Translations under genes and position numbers: made by a program
DNA from: an uncultured Gammaproteobacteria bacterium
GTDB taxonomy: Bacteria; Patescibacteriota; Patescibacteriia; UBA2196; GWA2-42-15
Direction: 5' to 3'
Assembly (NCBI GenBank): GCA_964573135.1
Contig: CAZNIO010000002.1
Location: 2,535 to 66,534, forward strand
DNA: 64,000 nt
Shown: positions 8,755 through 25,968 of the stretch, piece by piece
How the letters are laid out: the number at the start of each line of letters is the position of its first letter
How positions within the stretch are numbered: the stretch's first letter is position 1
Notes under the pieces: generated by a model
Databases searched by the model: none
What the model saw: only the letters and a program-made list of their open reading frames with translations
What the model was told of the DNA's origin: nothing

Positions 8755-8831
8755 GGGCATATAGCTCAGTTGGTTAGAGCGCAACACTGATAATGTTGAG
8801 GTCCGTGGTTCAAATCCACGTATGCCCACCA
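8755..8831 (+). tRNA. tRNA-Ile (anticodon GAU), CCA encoded
   Basis: Manual cloverleaf: acceptor GGGCATA/TATGCCC, anticodon stem CAACA/TGTTG, loop CTGATAA, T-loop TTCAAAT. Confidence 0.9.
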
Positions 8832-8841
8832 TCAAAATCCT

Positions 8842-10065
8842 ATGCTCAGGAAAAAAACACACATTATAATAACAGTTATACTACTAGCCCTTTTTTTTAC
8901 GCCAATTTTTTGCCAAGCTTTTGAATATACATCCCTAGACCACTACACCCGCTATTTCTATAACCGCTACTCCAAGCACTTTGATAACTTTGGCCTAAAA
9001 TATGCAAGCCCCACCTATGGTATCCAAAAACTCAAAAATCCAGAAACCTCTCGTGAATGGATATCCCTTGCCTCATACTATAAATACAGAAGCATCCGAG
9101 GTGATATCAAGGCCAAACAAGCACTCAAAGACGCCGTCCATCAATCCTACCTAGCCAGCTTAAACAAATTGCCTCACGCTCAATCGTTTCAAGATGCTGA
9201 AAGCTATTTTCTAATACTTCAAGTATTTGAAAATGACCCAAACCTTTTTAACGAATTTGAACAAAAAAGAATAATTTACCAAATCAAAAAATATATCGAA
9301 CCAGGCATTAAGGCGAATGATACAGAAAATAGGAGCTTGGTATCAGCAGCTCATTGGCAATACATTGTCAATCTACTACATACCAAAAACATATTAAACC
9401 AAAGTCAAAAAGAATATTTTGATAAATTAATAAAAATAAAGATTGATACAGCTATTAATAGTTGCATCAACCAAGATTACTGGTATTTTGAAAATAATTG
9501 GAAAGATTTTTCACCTCACTATCATACAGTATCAGCCTTTATGCTAATGATCTATGGAGATCTAACCCAGCAAGACAAATACCTAGACATCTCCCAAGGA
9601 ATGTACTACAATATTAAAAAGGTGTCTTTCAAAAACGGTATGGTGGAAGCCCATCTTGGCAGAAGACCCCTAGGACTGGGAGCCCAGTTCTATCTTATGC
9701 AAGGACTACTTGGTAAATATTTTGATGACCCAGATTATAGTGTCTATCTGGCATATGCCAAAGGCCACAGATTCTTCTCAGATAAACAACACCCCGACCG
9801 CTTGGAATTCCACTCAACTATAGAAAATTCAGATCCTCAATTCCATGATGATTACGCATTTTCAGATAAAGCAGAGCTTGCCTTAACTATACCCAAATTA
9901 CAAAATGTAAATTTCAGTTCTAAATACTATTTTGACGACCCAATCCAACAATCAAGTGATGATAGTTATAATATAAAAAATACAGGTAATAAAATAATAT
10001 TTAATAAAATAAAAAACGTTCTTGGAAGCTATGGGAATTGGTCCCATATTTACAATTTAAAATAA
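8842..10065 (+). CDS. Hypothetical secreted protein (signal peptide)
   Basis: The N-terminus MLRKKTHIIITVILLALFFTPIFCQA resembles a signal peptide. No recognisable catalytic motif. Confidence 0.45.
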   Translation: MLRKKTHIIITVILLALFFTPIFCQAFEYTSLDHYTRYFYNRYSKHFDNFGLKYASPTYGIQKLKNPETSREWISLASYYKYRSIRGDIKAKQALKDAVHQSYLASLNKLPHAQSFQDAESYFLILQVFENDPNLFNEFEQKRIIYQIKKYIEPGIKANDTENRSLVSAAHWQYIVNLLHTKNILNQSQKEYFDKLIKIKIDTAINSCINQDYWYFENNWKDFSPHYHTVSAFMLMIYGDLTQQDKYLDISQGMYYNIKKVSFKNGMVEAHLGRRPLGLGAQFYLMQGLLGKYFDDPDYSVYLAYAKGHRFFSDKQHPDRLEFHSTIENSDPQFHDDYAFSDKAELALTIPKLQNVNFSSKYYFDDPIQQSSDDSYNIKNTGNKIIFNKIKNVLGSYGNWSHIYNLK

Positions 10066-10071
10066 TACCAT

Positions 10072-10384
10072 GCCGAGGTAGCTCAGTGGTAGAGCACAGG
10101 ACTGAATTTTCGGTCCATCACAAAGCAATTTGTGATCGCAAACTGGGTGAATTCGGGGAAACCTACGGTCATATGTATGACTATGGCAATCCCGAGCCAA
10201 GCTCTAGAGGGTATAAGTTCTAGAGAAGGTGTAGAGACTAACAGGTGAGTCCCAACAATAACCCTGTATAAGCGCCCAGCCCCTAATATTCAATTAGGGT
10301 GATGAGATAGTCCGATCCTAAAGGAAACTTTAGTTAACACACAGGAAAATCCTGGTGTCGAGAGTTCGATTCTCTCCCTCGGCA
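10072..10384 (+). tRNA. tRNA-Phe (anticodon GAA) interrupted by a group I intron. Exons are 10072..10103 and 10345..10384; no CCA is encoded.
   Basis: The exons join to GCCGAGGUAGCUCAGUGGUAGAGCACAGGACU|GAAAAUCCUGGUGUCGAGAGUUCGAUUCUCUCCCUCGGCA, a complete cloverleaf with close similarity to bacterial tRNA-Phe. The acceptor stem GCCGAGG/CCTCGGC pairs across the intron. Confidence 0.8.
10104..10344 (+). ncRNA. Group I self-splicing intron (241 nt) in the anticodon loop of tRNA-Phe, between U33 and G34
   Basis: The core closely resembles Azoarcus/cyanobacterial tRNA group I introns (GAATTCGGGGAAACCTACGG, TATGGCAATCCCGAGCCAAGC, GAAGGTGTAGAGACTAACAGGTGAG). P1 forms between exon GGACU and intron GGUCC with a U.G at the 5' splice site. 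The last intron nucleotide is G. Confidence 0.8.
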
Positions 10385-10899
10385 AATCGCGGGATGTGGT
10401 ATAATGGTAGTACGTATGCTTTGGGAGCATATAGCGGGAGTTCGATTCTCCCCATCCCGAATTTAAAACTCTGACTTTGCGTCAGGGTTTTAAAATACCC
10501 CAATAAAAAAGATGATGTACTATTTAATATACACCATCTTATAATCTTATTTCTTGCCCTCTTTTCTATCCAAGCCCAATTGCGCTCGTTATCTGCTTTA
10601 ATAATTTGTGGATAATGAGCGCAGACATCGGAATTTAATAAAACACTGGCTCGCATTTTATACTTATCCAATAAATCCATTATCCGCCAAAGTCCCACCC
10701 GCACACCATAATCTCGCCAGCCATAATTTAACGGATCTGGATCCAAATTGGCAGTGCCAGAAAAAATACTTGTGGCCGGCTTACCGAGCTCATAATCCTC
10801 AATATTCAATCCAATATAAACAGCGAACCCTTCCCCGTTCGGCCATTTAATTTTTGGCCGTTCAATGATAGGGCTATAATTAAAAAGTTCATTTTCCAT
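10330..10899 (-). pseudogene. 3'-truncated PuuE/polysaccharide-deacetylase-like gene. Only about 115 N-terminal residues are homologous; the reading frame then runs through the tRNA-Pro/Phe genes.
   Basis: ERPKIKWPNGEGFAVYIGLNIEDYE...YGVRVGLWRIMDLL...NSDVCAHYPQIIKA parallels the PuuE N-terminus (KWPG.ARIALSFVLNYEEGGE...YGSRAGVWRLL...NPEVIRA). The catalytic GHE..SHG segment is lost and the 3' part overlaps tRNAs. Confidence 0.45.
10390..10460 (+). tRNA. tRNA-Pro (anticodon UGG)
   Basis: C1-G72 acceptor (CGGGATG/CATCCCG), anticodon loop TTTGGGA with G37, T-arm GGGAG/TTCGATT/CTCCC. It starts 5 nt after tRNA-Phe. Confidence 0.85.
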
Positions 10900-19013: not shown

Positions 19014-21263
19014 TTATCTTTCTTCTTCCTCATCAAGCTCTTCTTCTTCTGCTACTTCTTCCTCTTGAGTCTCTTCTTCTATTTTGTCTTCTGCATATTC
19101 ATCTATAATCTCATTATCACCAATTTCTTCGGAGCTAGCAACTAAAATCTCTCTCGGTTTAGATCCTTCTTGAGGACCAATTGCCCCCTCCTCTTCCAAT
19201 AAATCCAAAATTCTTGCAGCGCGTGCATAACCAATTCTTAATCTTCTCTGTAAATATGAAGCCGAAGCCTTGCCTGCTTTAATAACTAAATCTCTGGCTT
19301 CATCTAAAAACTCATCCGAATCTTCATCCTCAAAACCAGAAGATACTCTAACTCCAGTAGCACCACCAGTAGCTCTTTCAACTACTGCCTCATCATAATC
19401 AGATTCAGCTGATTTACGTAAATAACCCACCACATTCTCAATATCTTCATCACTCGCATATGCTCCCTGCAAACGCTTTGGTTTTGAAATTTCTGCTGAA
19501 GTGAAAAGCATGTCTCCTCTACCAAGCAACTTCTCAGCTCCAGACACATCAAGTATTGTACGTGAATCCGTCAAAGACGCCACCGAAAACGCAATCCTAC
19601 CAGGTATATTTGCTTTTATAAGACCAGTGATAATATCAACTGATGGTCGCTGAGTAGCCAAAACTAAGTGGATTCCTACAGCTCGAGACATTTGTGCCAA
19701 ACGTATAATCGCTGCCTCTACTTCAGCAGAGGCCACTGACATCAAATCTGCCAACTCATCGATCATAAATACCAAATAAGGCATCTTCTCCCTTGGATGA
19801 GCTGTGTTATAACTTTGAATATTTCTCTTACCAGCATTTGATAAAACATGAAAACGCCTCTCCATCTCAGAGATTGTCCATTTTAATGCATTAATTGTTT
19901 TTTTAATGTCCACAATCACCGGTGTCATCAAATGAGGAATATCATTATACCCAATCATTTCTACTCTCTTGGGATCAACCAAAATCATCTTTAATTCATC
20001 GGGCTGATTTTGATAAAGCAAAGATACAATAATGGAATTTAAACACACCGTTTTACCAGAATTAGTCGCACCCGCTACCAATAGATGAGGTAACCTACTC
20101 AAATCGGTAATCCACGGCTTACCAGCCACATCTTGCCCCAAAACAATAGTTAAATTAGATTTTCTTGTTTTAAATTCTTTCGATTCCAAAACCTGTCGCA
20201 AAGGCACCACTGCAATTTTCTTATTAGGCACCTCAATACCTACCAGCGCCTTACCAGGAATTGGCGCCTCAATACGAATCGGATGTGCTGCCAAAGCTAA
20301 AGATAAATCATTACCCAAACCCACTATACGCGATAATTTAACACCATCCATGGGACGAAAAGTATATTGAGTGACGGTTGGGCCAATAGATATCTCTCCC
20401 ATCTCAACCTCAATCCCAAAATTATTAAGTGTTTTTTTAATAATCTCTTGGCACAAGGTAGTATCTCTGGCTGTCGGCTCACCTGCTTTCGCATTTAAAA
20501 GATCAAGCGGAATATCAATCCGTGGATATTTCTTTCTTCTTTTTTTGGGGCGATCCTCATCCCCCTCTTCTTCATCTTCTTCCTCCTCTTCCTCCTCTTC
20601 TTCCTCATCACTATCAGCCAATTCTCTTCGGTCAAATTCAACTTCACCCTCTTCTTCCTCCTCATCCTCTTCTTCAGAATCTTCTCCTTTCCCCCTTACT
20701 CTCTTATTCACAAAATCTCCCATGCCTTGCCTTAAATTTTTTAAGGTAGCTCTTTCAATTAAGGATTCAAGCGTAGTATTAAACATAAGTAACACACCAA
20801 TCACCAAAAAGGCAAACATTACTACCATCGAAGCCCAACGACCCATCATCGCAAAAAATGGATAGCTTATAGCAAAACCAACATAACCCCCACCCATGCC
20901 ATCTTTTAAAATTTCCTTATACGATTCAGGATCCTGTACCAAATGAAAAAATCCAGAATAACCCAAAATTAAAAGCATCACTCCAATCCAATTAATCATT
21001 CTAAAAGAATGTTTGGTATTTTTTAAATTCAAATATCCAGCAGCTAAGAGCACCAAAGGAAATATCCAAAAACCCCAACCAAATACCAATTCCAAAACCC
21101 TATACATCCATCTACCAAATCCACCCGCCAAATCAAAAATAGACAGTAAGCTTATAAGAGCTACTGCGAAGATTATAACAATAAAAATACCTTTTTTAGT
21201 TGAATTCTCTACTTCCAAAAAATCACCAGAAAACCCAAATTTTCTCTTTTTCCTTCTTCCCAT
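19014..21263 (-). CDS. ftsK: DNA translocase FtsK/SpoIIIE with a long acidic low-complexity linker
   Basis: N-terminal TM helices, Walker A VAGATNSGKTVCLNSII, Walker B LVFMIDELADLM, C-terminal gamma wHTH (ASASYLQRRLRIGYARAARILDLLEEEG). The poly-Glu/Asp insert is coding low complexity. Confidence 0.9.
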   Translation of the reverse strand: MGRRKKRKFGFSGDFLEVENSTKKGIFIVIIFAVALISLLSIFDLAGGFGRWMYRVLELVFGWGFWIFPLVLLAAGYLNLKNTKHSFRMINWIGVMLLILGYSGFFHLVQDPESYKEILKDGMGGGYVGFAISYPFFAMMGRWASMVVMFAFLVIGVLLMFNTTLESLIERATLKNLRQGMGDFVNKRVRGKGEDSEEEDEEEEEGEVEFDRRELADSDEEEEEEEEEEDEEEGDEDRPKKRRKKYPRIDIPLDLLNAKAGEPTARDTTLCQEIIKKTLNNFGIEVEMGEISIGPTVTQYTFRPMDGVKLSRIVGLGNDLSLALAAHPIRIEAPIPGKALVGIEVPNKKIAVVPLRQVLESKEFKTRKSNLTIVLGQDVAGKPWITDLSRLPHLLVAGATNSGKTVCLNSIIVSLLYQNQPDELKMILVDPKRVEMIGYNDIPHLMTPVIVDIKKTINALKWTISEMERRFHVLSNAGKRNIQSYNTAHPREKMPYLVFMIDELADLMSVASAEVEAAIIRLAQMSRAVGIHLVLATQRPSVDIITGLIKANIPGRIAFSVASLTDSRTILDVSGAEKLLGRGDMLFTSAEISKPKRLQGAYASDEDIENVVGYLRKSAESDYDEAVVERATGGATGVRVSSGFEDEDSDEFLDEARDLVIKAGKASASYLQRRLRIGYARAARILDLLEEEGAIGPQEGSKPREILVASSEEIGDNEIIDEYAEDKIEEETQEEEVAEEEELDEEEER

Positions 21264-21584
21264 AATATTAGTGAAAAAATTAAGTATAACTGTATTTTAT
21301 CATCTTATCCCTATAGCTACAATAGCTACAACATATCCAGTAGGTTATCTAGGCTAGCGAAGTGATTACTACTAACTTTAGTATAAATTTGTATAGTTTC
21401 TAAACCTAATAATTACTAAATATATCCAATATCCTAGTTTACAGTCCGCGATAAATTTTTATTGATTTGCATATTCTAGGAATCTTCAGTTATAATAAAG
21501 ACAAGAATTAAAAATAATAACATAAAGTATAGATAACATACAAATTACAAGCATTATCAATCAAAAAGTTTAGATATACGCTAG

Positions 21585-21825
21585 TTGTCAAAAATATCGT
21601 TCGCTCCACTCCGCTACCGCTACGTTACACTCCTCAATTTTTGACAATGCCGACGAATAGGCTTGGGCCTTCTAAGAGCTCACGATTCTTCTGACAACAA
21701 CGGATAAGCGGCTCGCAACGACCCTACTGGCTTCCCTGCTCGGCCCAAACCTAACTCAGTCCTTTCCTTAGTCTGAAAGCCTTCGGCTTTCACCCTGCGG
21801 AAAGTCCTTCGTTAGGCTTCGCCTA
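21585..21825 (+). repeat. Copy A of a ~231-241-nt GC-rich structured repeat. It contains an 11-bp inverted repeat (TTGTCAAAAAT...ATTTTTGACAA), a UUCG hairpin and a 69-nt attC-like palindrome (ACCTAAC...GTTAGGC) at 21749..21817.
   Basis: ~99% identical to copy A' (3 substitutions and one 10-nt indel). It lies immediately upstream of the ORF at 21884. Confidence 0.75.
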
Positions 21826-21883
21826 TCCGTCGGCATTATTCGAAATATATTTTTATTTTTACTTACCATTTAACTAAAATTTT

Positions 21884-22321
21884 ATGTCAGATCAACTTCC
21901 AGACGAAAATTCAAAACGTTTTATTGCTGTTCTCAACAAGAAAGTTGAAACAGGCAAACTTATGAACGCACTTGGGCACATTACGGCTGGTCTTGCGGGT
22001 GGCTCTAATAAAACCGACGAAATGTGCTTTTTACAATATCAGGATAAAGAGGGCGGTAGTCATCCAAATATTTCTCACTTTCCGTTTATTGTACTCAAAG
22101 TTGACAACTCTAATAAAATTCGCAAAGTTCGCAACGAAGCCATCGACCGAAACATACCTTTCTCTGATTTCACGAGTACTATGACTGTTGGCACTTCTCA
22201 AGAACAACAGGACGCCACCCGCAAGACCTCCGAGGAAGAATTAGAATATTACGCTATTGTCTTGTTTGGTGGAACTGAAGAGCTGAAAGAATTCACAGGC
22301 AAGTTCTCTTTATACCAGTAA
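21884..22321 (+). CDS. Hypothetical protein, possibly DUF2000-like
   Basis: 145 aa, no motif I can assign with certainty. It is flanked by the A and A' repeats. Confidence 0.45.
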   Translation: MSDQLPDENSKRFIAVLNKKVETGKLMNALGHITAGLAGGSNKTDEMCFLQYQDKEGGSHPNISHFPFIVLKVDNSNKIRKVRNEAIDRNIPFSDFTSTMTVGTSQEQQDATRKTSEEELEYYAIVLFGGTEELKEFTGKFSLYQ

Positions 22322-22471
22322 AAATAAAAATAAACTCAAACCCCGCTGCGCTCTCCTCCTTGCAGTCGTCGGGTCGCACAACACCGTATATCTGGAAAAT
22401 GGCCTCAGCTCGGCATTTTCTCGAATTTACAACTCATTGCATTCATTGTAAACTCCAGATATCCCGATACA

Positions 22472-22702
22472 TTGTCAAAAATATCGTTCGCTCCACTCCG
22501 CTACCGCTACGTTACACTCCTCAATTTTTGACAACGCCGACGAATAGGCTTGGGCCTTCTAAGAGCTCACGATTCAACGGATAAGCGGCTCGCAACGACC
22601 CTACTGGCTTCCCTGCTCGGCCCAAGCCTAACTCAGTCCTTTCCTTAGTCTGAAAGCCTTCGGCTTTCACCCTGCGGAAAATCCTTCGTTAGGCTTCGCC
22701 TA
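22472..22702 (+). repeat. Copy A' of the structured repeat. The attC-like 69-nt palindrome GCCTAAC-N55-GTTAGGC lies at 22626..22694.
   Basis: Direct comparison with copy A. It ends 71 nt upstream of the HD-domain gene. Confidence 0.75.
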
Positions 22703-22772
22703 CCCATCCCATTAGCTTAAATTACCCAAAACCATTTTAATCTTTTCTATTTAATTATAATTTTTCATAAAA

Positions 22773-23417
22773 ATGAACAAAAAACAAATCATAAATCAAA
22801 CGGCTAAGCACGTCAAAATGAAACTAACCGGCGAAGGTTCTGGTCATGACTGGTGGCATGTTTATCGTGTCTGGAAAAATGCTGTCCATATTGGTAAACA
22901 TGAGAATGCAGATTTATTTGTTGTTGAACTTGCCGCCCTGCTTCACGATATCGCTGACTGGAAATTTCATAGTAATGCAGGTCCAAAATTGGCTCGCGAG
23001 TGGTTAAAAAAATTATCTGTTGATGAAAACGTAATTTCTCATGTTTGCCAAATCGTTCGAGACGCTTCATTCAAGGGCGCTAGCGTCATGACCAGAATAA
23101 AAACCAAGGAGGGTATGGTTGTTCAAGATGCCGATCGTTTAGACGCAATTGGCGCAATTGGAATCGGTAGAACCTTCGCCTACGGTGGCAGTCAAGGTCG
23201 CGAGATGTATAATCCCAATATTAAAACTAAAAAATATAAATCGCCTGATCAGTTTAAAAACAGCAGGAGTCCCACAATAAATCATTTTTATGAAAAATTA
23301 CTACTCTTGAAAGAATTAATGAATACCACGACTGCAAAAAAAATTGCCAGGAAACGACATAAATTTATGGGGAAGTTTCTAGACAAATTCTTTCAAGAGT
23401 GGGAAGGTAAAGATTAA
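22773..23417 (+). CDS. HD-domain phosphohydrolase
   Basis: H...HD motif (WWHVYRVWKNAVHIG...LAALLHDIADWKF) and downstream conserved D. Confidence 0.8.
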   Translation: MNKKQIINQTAKHVKMKLTGEGSGHDWWHVYRVWKNAVHIGKHENADLFVVELAALLHDIADWKFHSNAGPKLAREWLKKLSVDENVISHVCQIVRDASFKGASVMTRIKTKEGMVVQDADRLDAIGAIGIGRTFAYGGSQGREMYNPNIKTKKYKSPDQFKNSRSPTINHFYEKLLLLKELMNTTTAKKIARKRHKFMGKFLDKFFQEWEGKD

Positions 23418-23624
23418 AATGGTTTTGGACAACTCAAGCCACGCTGCGCTCTCACCAGCCCTTTTATTTTTTTAACAATAATGATGGCGGGCTCAGGTCA
23501 GCTAACACCGAGTATACGGTTCAGGCCTCAGCTCGGCCTTCACCCATATTTGCCTCCGCTACGCTATAACAAGCATCGTATACACGCATACATTATTCGA
23601 AATTTATTTTAAAAATTATTTTTT

Positions 23625-24011
23625 ATGAGAAAAGACATAGTCGCATTAATACTTGAAAAAGACGGATTATTTTTAATAGAAGAAAGGAAGAGTACAAATA
23701 CGTTAGATCCTGATAAGTTTGTATTTCCTGGCGGGCATCTTCATGTAGATGAAAAACTAGAGGATGCTATTAAACGTAAAACGTTTGAAGAATTACACAT
23801 TAAACTGATTAATTTCAAATTAGTATATGTGAAAAATTTTGACGGACCAGAAGAAAAACAAAAGCTTCACTGGTATTGGTGCGATAATTTTACTGGTAAA
23901 ATACAAAATAATGAAGCTGAACAATTAATTTGGATAAATGCAACTGAAATAGAAAGACTATCCTACCAAGTTAGCAAAGACGCATTCAAGGCCATGCTAA
24001 ACCAAAAATAA
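23625..24011 (+). CDS. NUDIX hydrolase
   Basis: Nudix-box-like region (GGHLHVDEKLEDAIKRKTFEELHI) in a 128-aa protein. Confidence 0.75.
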   Translation: MRKDIVALILEKDGLFLIEERKSTNTLDPDKFVFPGGHLHVDEKLEDAIKRKTFEELHIKLINFKLVYVKNFDGPEEKQKLHWYWCDNFTGKIQNNEAEQLIWINATEIERLSYQVSKDAFKAMLNQK

Positions 24012-24100
24012 CTTTTAAAATAAACATCGCCCAACAACGCGATAAGCGACTCCAGAAATTTACATTAATTTATATTTTTTATTCTTTAAACTAAAAACAT

Positions 24101-24379
24101 ATGATCAATTTAAAACGAAAAATTCCTACAAAAGTTTGGATCCCCCTCTTCGCATTCATTCTCTTGCTACCAATTATTATTGCCACTATTACAGTAGTAT
24201 TACATTGTCAAAATACTGAATTACCATTTTGGGGAGATGAACATTCAGTTGAAACTGGATACTTTATACTTTTCGCAATTACAACATACTATCTTTTCTA
24301 TATAGTCGCTCCCATACTTGTCATCTATTTTCTAATCTGGTCAATAAAATTTTGGAGAAATAAAAAGAACTCTGAATAA
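24101..24379 (+). CDS. Hypothetical small membrane protein
   Basis: Two to three predicted TM helices. No domain. Confidence 0.35.
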   Translation: MINLKRKIPTKVWIPLFAFILLLPIIIATITVVLHCQNTELPFWGDEHSVETGYFILFAITTYYLFYIVAPILVIYFLIWSIKFWRNKKNSE

Positions 24380-24529
24380 TATTGAAAATCACAAATTTGT
24401 TCTTGTCTGCTCCATCCAAATCCTGCTACTAGCATCAATATTTAATTCATTTAAACATCCGCATTCTGAATTCAACGAATGTGTCATTCGACACGGCTAG
24501 ACTTCAAACATACGGATCCGTTATTCGAA

Positions 24530-24886
24530 ATGGCCACAAATTATTATGAAAAACAAATCAATAAATTTACTGACCAATGGTCTCCCAAAATCATCACCCA
24601 AATAAACAACAATCATTTTAAATTAGCGAGAGTCGAATGAAACTTTAAGTGGCATGATCACAAAAACACCGATGAAGTATTCATGGTATTAGAGGGCCAA
24701 TTACGAATTGATTATCGAGACAGCAGTATTATTTTGAATAAAGGTGAGCTACCTGTGGTAAAAAAAGGAATTGAACATAAACCTTTCGCCACCAAAAAGT
24801 GCAAAATTTTACTTATAGAGCCAGCTGGAACAGTAAATACTGGCGATGTAGGTGGAGACCAAATAGCTCAAAATGAATGGATTTAA
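24530..24886 (+). pseudogene. Cupin-domain gene interrupted by an in-frame TGA (nonsense at 24638..24640)
   Basis: MATNYYEKQINKFTDQWSPKIITQINNNHFKLARVE-TGA-NFKWHDHKNTDEVFMVLEGQLRI... lies in one frame. The cupin motifs (wH.H...dE.f.vleG, P.G.eH) are split by the stop. TGA is a genuine stop elsewhere in this window. Confidence 0.5.
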
Positions 24887-25044
24887 TAATTTGTGAATTA
24901 TACTCAATAACACCCGACATTAAAACAACCGAATCATCAATAAATATTCTAACACCACTGCCACTCCTAAAACAAACTCTTTAATCCACTTGCCAAACCC
25001 ACACAAATACTTTAAATTAAAGATAGAGGACATTAGCCAGTTAT

Positions 25045-25968
25045 ATGCAAGAAATATTACTCTCCAACCTACCCAAAGCCCATGGCCAAGTAAAAGGCTG
25101 CTGGTTTAAGGGCTACCCCATACACAAAGGCTTCACTCAAGCCAGTCTTAACTATGCCACAATCTATGCCAATCAAAAAAAAATACTCCCCAAACAAAGT
25201 GCCCTTAAAAAAGATTTTGAATTTTTTAAAAAAACTCTACGCTCAGCTGGTTTTAAAATCCATTCTGTCCCCTTTCCCAACGAGCTAAATCAAATAGATA
25301 ATTTACGCCATGATGCCATTTTTATTAGAGACGTGGGTTTTATGTATAAAAATCTATGGATAAAATCTAACTTTAGCTGCCGTCATCGCCAGCCAGAAGC
25401 AGATGCCTATGCCCCCATCATTGCTAAAAAATTTAAAAAAAGAATAATCAACCTACCCAAAGGAGCCTACCTGGAATTTGGAGACACTCTCTATGCAAAA
25501 ACCAAGAGTGGTGTTTTTTATTTCGGTGGACTTTCAAGGTCTAATAAAAAAGGACATGACTTTGTCAAAAAAATAATAAAACCAGATTTCTATTGCCTTA
25601 TAAAATCAGAAGGTTATCACCTTGATACAATTTTTGCCCCAATTATAAACAAAGATAATCAGCTCGTCGCATTTATTGTCAACAAGAAACGCTTTAATAC
25701 CAAGTGTTTAGATAAAATAAAAAAACTGGGGATTCCAATAATTAATATAAAACCAATCGACTCCTCAGGCATTCCAGGCAAACTTGGTAATTATGCCATC
25801 AACGCCCTCGTCGCCCCAGGAATTATGGTCAGCTGTCACAAATTTGAAACTCTAGGAGTAGAAAAAAAATTAAAAGAACTGGGTATTAAACACCATGTCA
25901 CCCCTCTCACATATTTCAGATTTGCAGGAGGGTCTTGCCACTGTCTGGCCAATGAAATTAACAAATAA
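25045..25968 (+). CDS. Amidinotransferase-superfamily enzyme (DDAH / arginine deiminase-like)
   Basis: Characteristic C-terminal catalytic Cys context (FAGGSCHCLANEI) and an internal GYHLDT segment. Confidence 0.55.
   Translation: MQEILLSNLPKAHGQVKGCWFKGYPIHKGFTQASLNYATIYANQKKILPKQSALKKDFEFFKKTLRSAGFKIHSVPFPNELNQIDNLRHDAIFIRDVGFMYKNLWIKSNFSCRHRQPEADAYAPIIAKKFKKRIINLPKGAYLEFGDTLYAKTKSGVFYFGGLSRSNKKGHDFVKKIIKPDFYCLIKSEGYHLDTIFAPIINKDNQLVAFIVNKKRFNTKCLDKIKKLGIPIINIKPIDSSGIPGKLGNYAINALVAPGIMVSCHKFETLGVEKKLKELGIKHHVTPLTYFRFAGGSCHCLANEINK

Follow-up and report, generated by a model that had tools for sequence, protein, structure and literature searches.

The window analysed here, a stretch of 64,000 nucleotides from contig CAZNIO010000002.1 (GenBank assembly GCA_964573135.1), carries beside ftsK an array of small genes interspersed with folded, attC-like elements. 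The host belongs to the Patescibacteria (candidate phyla radiation, CPR) near Candidatus Kuenenbacteria, with an FtsK 84% identical to its counterpart in the metagenome-assembled genome (MAG) GCA_043823865.1, and the window is AT-rich (about 30–40% GC in a genome of about 35% GC). The original prediction for this stretch had singled out a 69-nt palindrome, present once in each copy of a direct repeat that we call repeat A, as an integron attC recombination site within a cluster that lacks an integrase. Our analysis leads us to a different arrangement, which we regard as probable: the region would be a fossil integron-like cassette platform, in which repeat A is a cassette without an open reading frame (ORF), made of one oversized site, and the palindrome is the second hairpin of that site. 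The core of the array is laid out as follows.

19014–21263, minus strand: ftsK, left of the array; the small plus-strand genes begin to its right
21368–21433, minus strand: C-terminal relic of a recombinase gene, between ftsK and the array, covering the region of the catalytic-tyrosine motif (..LLG..TIQIYTKV..) and containing stop codons
21884–22321, plus strand: cassette gene 1, DUF2000 protein of 145 aa (Pfam PF09391, E 3e-34)
22333–22477, plus strand: B1, attC-like site with 5' module AACTCAAACCCCGCTGCGCTCTC, R'' GCACAAC, L box TATATCTGG/CCAGATAT and R' ATTGTCA
22773–23417, plus strand: cassette gene 2, HD-domain phosphohydrolase of 214 aa (Pfam PF01966)
23431–23598, plus strand: B2, attC-like site of weakened structure, with R' ATTATTC
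23625–24011, plus strand: cassette gene 3, NUDIX hydrolase of 128 aa (Pfam PF00293)

B1 and B2 lie just 3' of ORFs and on the same strand as these, starting 11 nt past the stop codon of the DUF2000 gene and 13 nt past that of the HD gene, respectively. They share the motifs AACTCAARCCMCGCTGCGCTCTC and GGCCTCAGCTCGGC, and both are full-length, significant matches to R1, a covariance model made from an alignment of 52 sites of the family described below, with 28 predicted pairs. B1 scores 100.1 bits (E 4e-25 over the whole window; nhmmer E 8e-23) and B2 88.8 bits (E 4e-22 over the whole window; nhmmer E 5e-22). Judged by these sequence matches, B1 and B2 are the well-supported candidates for recombination sites in the window, and neither had been flagged before. 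Recognised in this way and separated by 1098 nt, they have the spacing of a CALIN (an attC cluster without an integron integrase), which IntegronFinder 2.0 defines as two or more attC sites within 4 kb with no integrase (PMC9024848). The idea of an integrase-less cluster holds as far as the array itself goes, with co-directional small genes in a CPR genome, but the sites that appear real are B1 and B2 and not the palindrome.

The original prediction had also noted that no intI integrase lies in the window, and this agrees with our scans. There was no recombinase among 30 window ORFs (ten around the array and twenty of the larger ones elsewhere), and tblastn of the whole window against IntI1 and three array-associated recombinases found no recombinase gene; the IntI1 query scores 799 bits on the integron-integrase model TIGR02249. 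What is left is the 66-nt relic, which lies on the strand where the gene would be expected. Its translation (DIGYI, two stop codons, LLG-LETIQIYTKVSS...LD) aligns with the last 36 residues (aa 238–273) of the recombinase from one related locus, L029, including the catalytic-tyrosine motif, at E 2e-4 within the AT-rich spacer between ftsK and the first copy of repeat A (about 320–337 nt) and at E 1.7 when the whole window is searched. In L009, the closest relative, an N-terminal recombinase relic sits beside ftsK in the same place. A tail reading ..DKIQLYLIF.. is common to the window relic and the relic ORF of L009.

A family of folded sites and the recombinases beside them in CPR bacteria

To what do B1 and B2 belong? 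The conserved B motif, used to scan metagenome contigs, occurs in at least 120 of them, and together with model R1 it reveals a family of sites of common architecture, R1 recognising 172 of them at E<1e-6 in 83 metagenome loci. Read from the 5' end, a site opens with a motif of 23 nt and a short, variable hairpin, after which come TCGGG, the R'' box with AAC at its end, a single spacer base and an L'' strand of 10–12 nt. Next are a hairpin with loop CTCGGCTCG, then CCCAAATT and the second variable hairpin, and the site closes with CTTCG and the L' strand, a spacer of about four bases, and GTT followed by RYRY. In intact relatives the sites are about 100–170 nt long, with an L box of 10–12 bp and an asymmetric spacer (about 1 vs about 4 nt), and the fold is backed by compensatory double changes in 17 of the 28 predicted pairs. 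Expansion of the second variable hairpin brings some sites up to 244 nt, and back-to-back ORF-less sites exist, 170 nt apart. The match is confined to the core (model positions 42–140) in about 40% of the sites, so the 5' module is common and not universal. This module, AACTCAAGCCACGCTGCGCTCTC, stands before R'' in about 60% of the family sites and in the window occupies 22333–22355 and 23431–23453.

The sites are co-oriented in all 52 loci that have two or more, with a median spacing of 1241 nt. In 63 site pairs the last 61 nt show an identity of 93% or more. The downstream DNA is unrelated in 55 of these pairs, in which identity at each position stays at about 1.0 up to and including G-T-T and drops to about 0.3 further on. 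R' is GTT in 120 of the 136 sites where it can be read and ATT in 11 (8%); the bases after GTT follow ATRYGAAAT (126 distinct junctions). Past the crossover the arm thus reads TTATRYGAAAT, which appears similar to the XerD-binding arm of E. coli dif (TTATGTTAAAT), a resemblance that fits a Xer-like recombinase.

In principle the whole family could be an intergenic repeat with no part in recombination, since a conserved unit of about 270 nt follows unrelated ORFs. Such a unit fits the homogeneous attCs of sedentary integrons, but would fit an intergenic repeat family too. Four features argue for an integron-like mechanism, proposed here by analogy with integrons: within a locus all sites point the same way, they carry AAC/GTT boxes, their similarity breaks off at GTT, and the recombinase gene is divergent.

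The commonest site variant (L042, L047, L041, L057, L134 and others) carries an extra conserved stretch of ~115 nt about 125 nt upstream of the 5' module. It contains an AT-rich hairpin of 15 bp, for which L121 and L064 show compensatory variants, and a GGAAAG resembling a ribosome-binding site. The ATG that follows opens a frame which continues across the entire site and ends at a TAA or TGA within the L'-R' spacer. Such a frame could be an ORF of about 55 aa or a coincidence.

By tblastn with IntI1, genes or fragments of tyrosine recombinases are found in 14 loci, including the ftsK-linked relics of L009 and L010, and 12 of the 14 contain family sites. In every locus whose recombinase gene is intact enough to show its orientation, gene and array diverge; full-length array-associated proteins have 258–273 aa. 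L083 has the recombinase at 22–834 on the minus strand and then an ORF with its site three times over (sites at 1308, 1963 and 2471), with at most 20 nt between each ORF and its site. L141 contains a 270-aa recombinase, a divergent 207-aa gene, DUF2000 and NUDIX genes and three family sites, two of which end in GTTAGGC; its DUF2000 protein, within this intact array beside the recombinase, is an 86% identical homologue of that in the window. Thus co-oriented sites flanking promoterless cassettes beside a divergent recombinase are present in related loci, and the window has such an array without the gene.

Are these proteins integron integrases? The L083 recombinase is 33% identical to IntI1, with gaps of 30 and 12 aa where the IntI-specific domain sits. 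Five recombinases that we tested score 193–227 bits on TIGR02249 (cut-off 265), with the match split in two stretches, and 211–239 bits in one full-length stretch on the XerA model NF040815 (cut-off 220): L029 reaches 239.2, L134 230.4, L141 221.2 and L092 220.4, and L083, at 210.7, is just below the cut-off. The 90%-identity cluster of the L083 protein is annotated as tyrosine recombinase/XerD in Candidatus Magasanikbacteria and 'Patescibacteria group' MAGs. An additional domain around patch III is the accepted defining feature of IntI (Messier and Roy 2001, cited in PMC9668308). Since the recombinases of the CPR arrays are without the IntI-specific domain, we refer to integron-like systems and not to integrons in the strict sense.

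DUF2000 proteins 76–88% identical occur across contigs of distant CPR groups, namely Woesebacteria, Gracilibacteria, Shapirobacteria, Magasanikbacteria and Peribacteraceae (proteins P0122–P0240), which suggests from sequence identity that the gene has spread horizontally among them. Family sites were not found at the DUF2000 loci of three genomes (Woesebacteria, Shapirobacteria and Gracilibacteria), so DUF2000 is not always a cassette.

Repeat A and its palindrome

The elements to which the original prediction referred lie on either side of the DUF2000 cassette.

21584–21595, plus strand: junction J0 (GTTGTCAAAAAT), left boundary of A1; fits TTnnnnnAAAT
21585–21831 as a repeat (21586–21834 as a cassette element), plus strand: repeat A1, gene-less, strongly folding and GC-rich (about 55%)
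21696–21837, plus strand: part of A1 aligned to the family model, with R''-L'' AACAACGGATAAGCGG, CCCAA, the palindrome, CTTCG, L' CCTATCCGT and R' ATT
21749–21817, no strand assigned: 69-nt palindrome, copy 1, inside A1
21835–21846, plus strand: junction J1 (ATTATTCGAAAT), end of A1 and start of the DUF2000 cassette
22472–22708 as a repeat (22474–22710 as a cassette element), plus strand: repeat A2, the second copy; starts at the crossover position of the R' of B1
22626–22694, no strand assigned: 69-nt palindrome, copy 2, inside A2
22711–22722, plus strand: putative junction J3 (ATTAGCTTAAAT), end of A2 and start of the HD cassette; aligns with J1 and fits TTnnnnnAAAT

Repeat A is a direct repeat of about 245 nt, its copies 94–97% identical with one 10-nt indel, and it contains no ORF exceeding 43 codons. 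The palindrome stands in each copy where it had been reported, with arms of 35 + 35 nt, 3 nt between them and 74% complementarity, and folds far better than shuffled sequence: as single-stranded DNA it reaches −14.6 to −19.8 kcal/mol (z −4.1 to −5.5), and none of 200 shuffles folds as well. Several features by which it had been compared to attC are also borne out. Its ends, (A/G)CCTAAC ... GTTAGGC, fit the core consensus RYYYAAC/GTTRRRY exactly, within a 9-bp basal helix, although the window has no excess of the heptamer GTTAGGC (6 copies vs 5.2 expected); its 69 nt are inside the attC range of 57–141 nt; and the next ORF starts 66 and 78 nt after the two copies, within the predicted 65–80 nt. 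To this we can add that it is located in a genuine cassette array, that GTTAGGC is a real R' variant of the CPR family (6 of the 126 junction contexts; also seen twice in L141) and that GCCTAAC is the R'' of family site L043.

These likenesses do not carry over to the features by which a site would be recombined. DNA folds of both strands of both copies, in which the extrahelical bases typical of attC were sought, gave a symmetric hairpin with equal arms, only 2x2 internal loops and no bulges, so that neither a bulge nor an asymmetric spacer is there to give polarity. The basal helix is a perfect inverted repeat, in which the 'core sites' read alike on either strand; the agreement of their orientation with the ORFs, put forward earlier as support, therefore carries no information. 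The identity of A1 and A2 extends about 17 nt past the GTT that would be the crossover, through GTTAGGCTTCGCCTA(Y)CC(R)TC, and GTTAGGC is followed by TTCGC, without the ..GAAAT signature of true family junctions. No ORF precedes copy 1, copy 2 is 305 nt past the previous stop codon, and with R1 as a local model the palindrome alone gives 1.0 bit on either strand and no site-like alignment.

A population variant bears on the same question. L142, from another sample, is 99.7% identical over window positions 21769–22445 and is without 187 nt of A1, a stretch that takes in the palindrome's left arm: in its positions 1200–1320 window 21532–21585 is joined to 21769 onward. The deletion runs between two TAGT tetramers, its left end coincides with J0, and upstream L142 has a frameshifted DDE (rve-like) transposase of the insertion-sequence type instead of ftsK. 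The left arm was lost without other change, so the palindrome is dispensable. That the palindrome itself is a functional attC-type site, with R'' GCCTAAC and R' GTTAGGC, thus seems to us hardly credible. Its GCCTAAC...GTTAGGC ends are best read as look-alikes of core sites and not as a crossover point, and the palindrome is probably the inner arm of a larger gene-less cassette.

What then is repeat A? Its boundaries are informative. A2 starts as ..ATAC A followed by TTGTCAAAAAT, A1 as G followed by the same TTGTCAAAAAT, and J0 after its first base is the same sequence as J2, the model-defined R' of B1. A1 ends at a C before ATTATTCGAAAT, a motif that also ends B2, and A2 at a C before the degenerate ATTAGCTTAAAT. 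Of the 9 unbiased positions of the family junction consensus, J1 agrees in 8, and the 13-mer CATTATTCGAAAT is found in two exact copies and one with a single mismatch, all on the plus strand within 2.7 kb and each shortly before an ORF.

It could be argued that repeat A is an unrelated repeat, either similar to a miniature inverted-repeat transposable element or the product of a local segmental duplication, which lies in the array by chance. There are two local copies only, of 94–97% identity. In L006 (1–280) and L007 (1–316), moreover, the 3' end of B1 is joined to an A1-type copy, followed by DUF2000, B1 and A again; such joins could represent an excised circle, a tandem duplication of A1-DUF2000-B1 or a repeat assembly artefact, and they are compatible with tandem duplication by homologous recombination. 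The repeat, however, has no transposon-type terminal inverted repeats, target duplication or nearby transposase, both copies start at the same junction sequence, and A2 starts exactly at the crossover position of B1. Since the boundaries coincide so exactly with junctions, we consider a chance repeat very unlikely.

A1 also aligns, though weakly, with the site family. For model R1 it is the third-ranking match in the window, behind B1 and B2 (11.5 bits; E 0.0098 over 3.6 kb, 0.17 over the whole window), and a sequence-only hidden Markov model likewise ranks this spot third. In the alignment AACAACGGATAAGCGG falls on R''-L'' (consensus AACAAGGGATATACGG), CCCAA on CCCAAA, the palindrome on the second variable hairpin and CTTCGCCTATCCGTCGGCATT on L'-spacer-R', so that the family motifs AAC, CCCAA and CTTCG stand where they should. 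Family sites in L015 and L049 have a layout like that of the 5' part of A, namely R'-AAAT, a loop with GCTCCACT.CGCT, ATTT-R'' and L''. On this model-based comparison there is modest support for the view that repeat A is a cassette with no ORF, consisting of a single oversized and partly duplicated site whose distal arm is the palindrome.

The strength of the fold raises another possibility, that repeat A specifies a structured RNA (a small RNA or a cis-acting leader), probably from the minus strand, which would be either cassette cargo or unrelated to recombination. Both strands fold with z of −5.3 to −7.9 and the minus strand is the stabler, as RNA (−111.7 kcal/mol, z −7.9, vs −85.4 kcal/mol, z −6.1, for the plus strand) and as DNA (−55.9 vs −45.0 kcal/mol). 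By direct reading, the closing helix of A2 is weakened, with 11 pairs kept as G-U/G-T wobbles on the minus strand only. All four A1/A2 substitutions within helices stay paired only as G-U on the minus strand, and the 10-nt indel sits at a hairpin tip. Repeat A also stands out by its 55% GC and has kept its sequence much better than the sites around it and the relic of the recombinase gene. Against this, four out of four corresponds to p of about 0.06 only, G-T wobbles equally favour folding of the bottom-strand DNA, L142 has deleted 187 nt of A1, and scans of the array for promoters and terminators gave nothing above shuffles. Rfam 15, searched over 21200–24200 at gathering thresholds and at E up to 10, returned only chance-level matches.

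Homologues were likewise not found in any collection searched: BLAST of repeat A against plasmid and phage collections gave no match, exact-pattern scans of viral contigs nothing, and a 20-mer from repeat A 0 matches in the metagenome collection. In 185,579 species genomes the 20-mer gave one match, with ~1 expected by chance, in an Acidobacteriota coding region at a contig end, where the similarity does not extend; a six-frame concatenated pseudo-protein of repeat A found nothing among 5.8 billion proteins. We therefore regard a structured RNA as unlikely, and prefer the ORF-less cassette.

Among known structured elements, four further candidates were considered and rejected: a retron msr/msd (no reverse transcriptase), an omega or bridge RNA (no TnpB, IscB or IS110 gene), the template and variable repeats of a diversity-generating retroelement (the differences are not adenine-specific and the repeats are non-coding) and a riboswitch (two near-identical copies before unrelated genes, and no family).

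Signs of decay and a probable explanation of the locus

To the right of the NUDIX gene the plus-strand genes continue with a 92-aa membrane protein, a frameshifted cupin and a 307-aa protein, and possible traces of further cassettes can be recognised.

24033–24048, plus strand: possible half-site remnant R''-L'' (AACAACGCGATAAGCG), after the NUDIX gene
24520–24531, plus strand: junction J5 (GTTATTCGAAAT), abutting the cupin start codon; second-best match of the window to the position weight matrix (PWM) of the junction motif
24531–24886, plus strand: cupin gene, split by a frameshift/stop into 24531–24640 and 24683–24886; its start codon abuts J5
25045–25968, plus strand: 307-aa ORF, its start codon overlapped by GTTATATGCAAG (25040–25051)

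The possible half-site AACAACGCGATAAGCG has exactly the sequence of R''-L'' in family site L133 and differs from the AACAACGGATAAGCGG of repeat A by one indel; R1 gives no match at this place. The cupin gene is a probable pseudogene cassette. GTTATATGCAAG, the fourth-best PWM match of the window, may be a further cassette boundary. Upstream of A1, similarity of the sequence to B was not significant (z 0.8). The ftsK-adjacent region is variable among related species, and no A-like or B-like sequence was found in the ftsK neighbourhoods of the relatives L009–L013.

Elsewhere in the window a group I intron (10094–10334, plus strand; Rfam RF00028, 85 bits, E 3e-20) is flanked by a 407-aa ORF without Pfam match (8842–10065) and a tRNA-Pro (10390–10460); a tRNA-Ile (8755–8831) lies just upstream of the 407-aa ORF.

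How might such a locus have come about? In intact relatives an array of small genes, each with a folded site behind it, diverges from the gene of a 270-aa Xer/IntI-like tyrosine recombinase. If it acts like an integron integrase, this enzyme would recognise single strands in their folded form and swap cassettes after the G of GTT. In the window its gene would have decayed to the relic, with B1 and B2 still recognisable beside the DUF2000, HD and NUDIX genes. Repeat A would begin at one cassette junction (G or A before TTGTCAAAAAT) and end at another (C before ATTATTCGAAAT), as an ORF-less cassette of one oversized site, and the palindrome would be the expanded second variable hairpin of that site.

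This explanation, which we favour as the probable one, has several points against it. The match of A1 to the family model is weak at 11.5 bits, A2 is not detected by R1, and a second example of repeat A was not found in any of the collections. The junction PWM is not specific in an AT-rich window, with 2 matches above threshold vs 3.5 expected, so the junction motif counts only in context. All three clear junctions (21835, 22471 and 23592) read ATT and not GTT, the DNA fold of B2 is not better than shuffles, and of the recombinase gene the relic alone is left; taken together, nothing shows recent recombination at this locus. The half-site standing alone after the NUDIX gene and the frameshifted cupin are further signs of decay. 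What the window itself conveys, then, is that the flagged hairpin is probably not a recombination site, that the array looks fossil and that the real sites appear to be B1 and B2.

We put forward a broader proposal more tentatively, as possible but short of probable: that integron-like cassette capture is widespread in CPR bacteria, with a short XerA-like recombinase that lacks the IntI domain and with a site architecture of its own, representing either an independent invention or an intermediate between Xer/dif and integrons. The window would then be a decayed example, in which the 94–97% identity of the A copies hints at recent activity in trans.

Comparison with integrons and Xer/dif systems

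Integrons, which arose from Xer-like recombinases, are defined by IntI and its special domain. CPR bacteria have tiny genomes and are thought to hold few mobile elements. If the family is active, it would give these bacteria a dedicated route for swapping accessory genes, and it would provide a natural comparison for asking which features of recombination on folded DNA need the IntI domain. Surveys based on IntegronFinder demand that domain, and CPR arrays would therefore be classed at best as clusters of orphan sites. The original prediction had remarked that integron arrays are not routinely described in CPR genomes; consistent with this, in our literature searches neither integrons nor attC sites nor cassette arrays turned up as described from CPR/Patescibacteria, and the text of the IntegronFinder 2.0 survey of RefSeq complete genomes contains no mention of CPR lineages under 'Patescibacteria' or 'Candidat'. 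We rate as new the combination of an integron-like architecture with a Xer-type recombinase that lacks the IntI domain and with its own type of site.

The palindrome resembles canonical attC (R''-L''-loop-L'-R') in its length and its RYYYAAC/GTTRRRY ends, but it lacks the extrahelical bases and the asymmetry of the L box, marks no cassette boundary and is embedded in a larger conserved element. The CPR arrays as a whole resemble sedentary chromosomal integrons and CALINs (such as the Vibrio superintegron with its VCR-type attC sites). Small accessory genes are co-oriented and each is followed by an imperfect palindromic site of AAC...GTT type, similarity stops after the G of GTT, near-identical sites stand behind unrelated genes, a divergent tyrosine recombinase lies at one end, and ORF-less cassettes and decayed integrase-less arrays occur in both. 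In contrast to integrons, the recombinase has 270 aa, is without the IntI-specific domain and stays below the TIGR02249 cut-off (193–227 vs 265 bits). The CPR sites have a branched variable region with two hairpins, the 1-nt vs about 4-nt spacer in place of the unpaired central spacer and single extrahelical bases of attC, and in many cases a conserved 23-nt 5' module and ~9 conserved bases (ATRYGAAAT) after GTT. The hosts differ as well, since it is CPR bacteria that carry these arrays.

A second likeness is to Xer/dif systems (archaeal XerA and bacterial XerC/D, the integrative mobile elements exploiting Xer, and the pdif modules of Acinetobacter plasmids), to which the array-associated recombinases are linked by their full-length match to the XerA model NF040815, at or near its cut-off, and, in the lineage of the window, by a recombinase gene that adjoins ftsK. 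The sites, however, are folded palindromes of ~100–170 nt with covarying stems and not 28-bp duplex dif sequences, and they stand in long co-oriented arrays behind genes instead of as a single chromosomal site or in alternating orientation.

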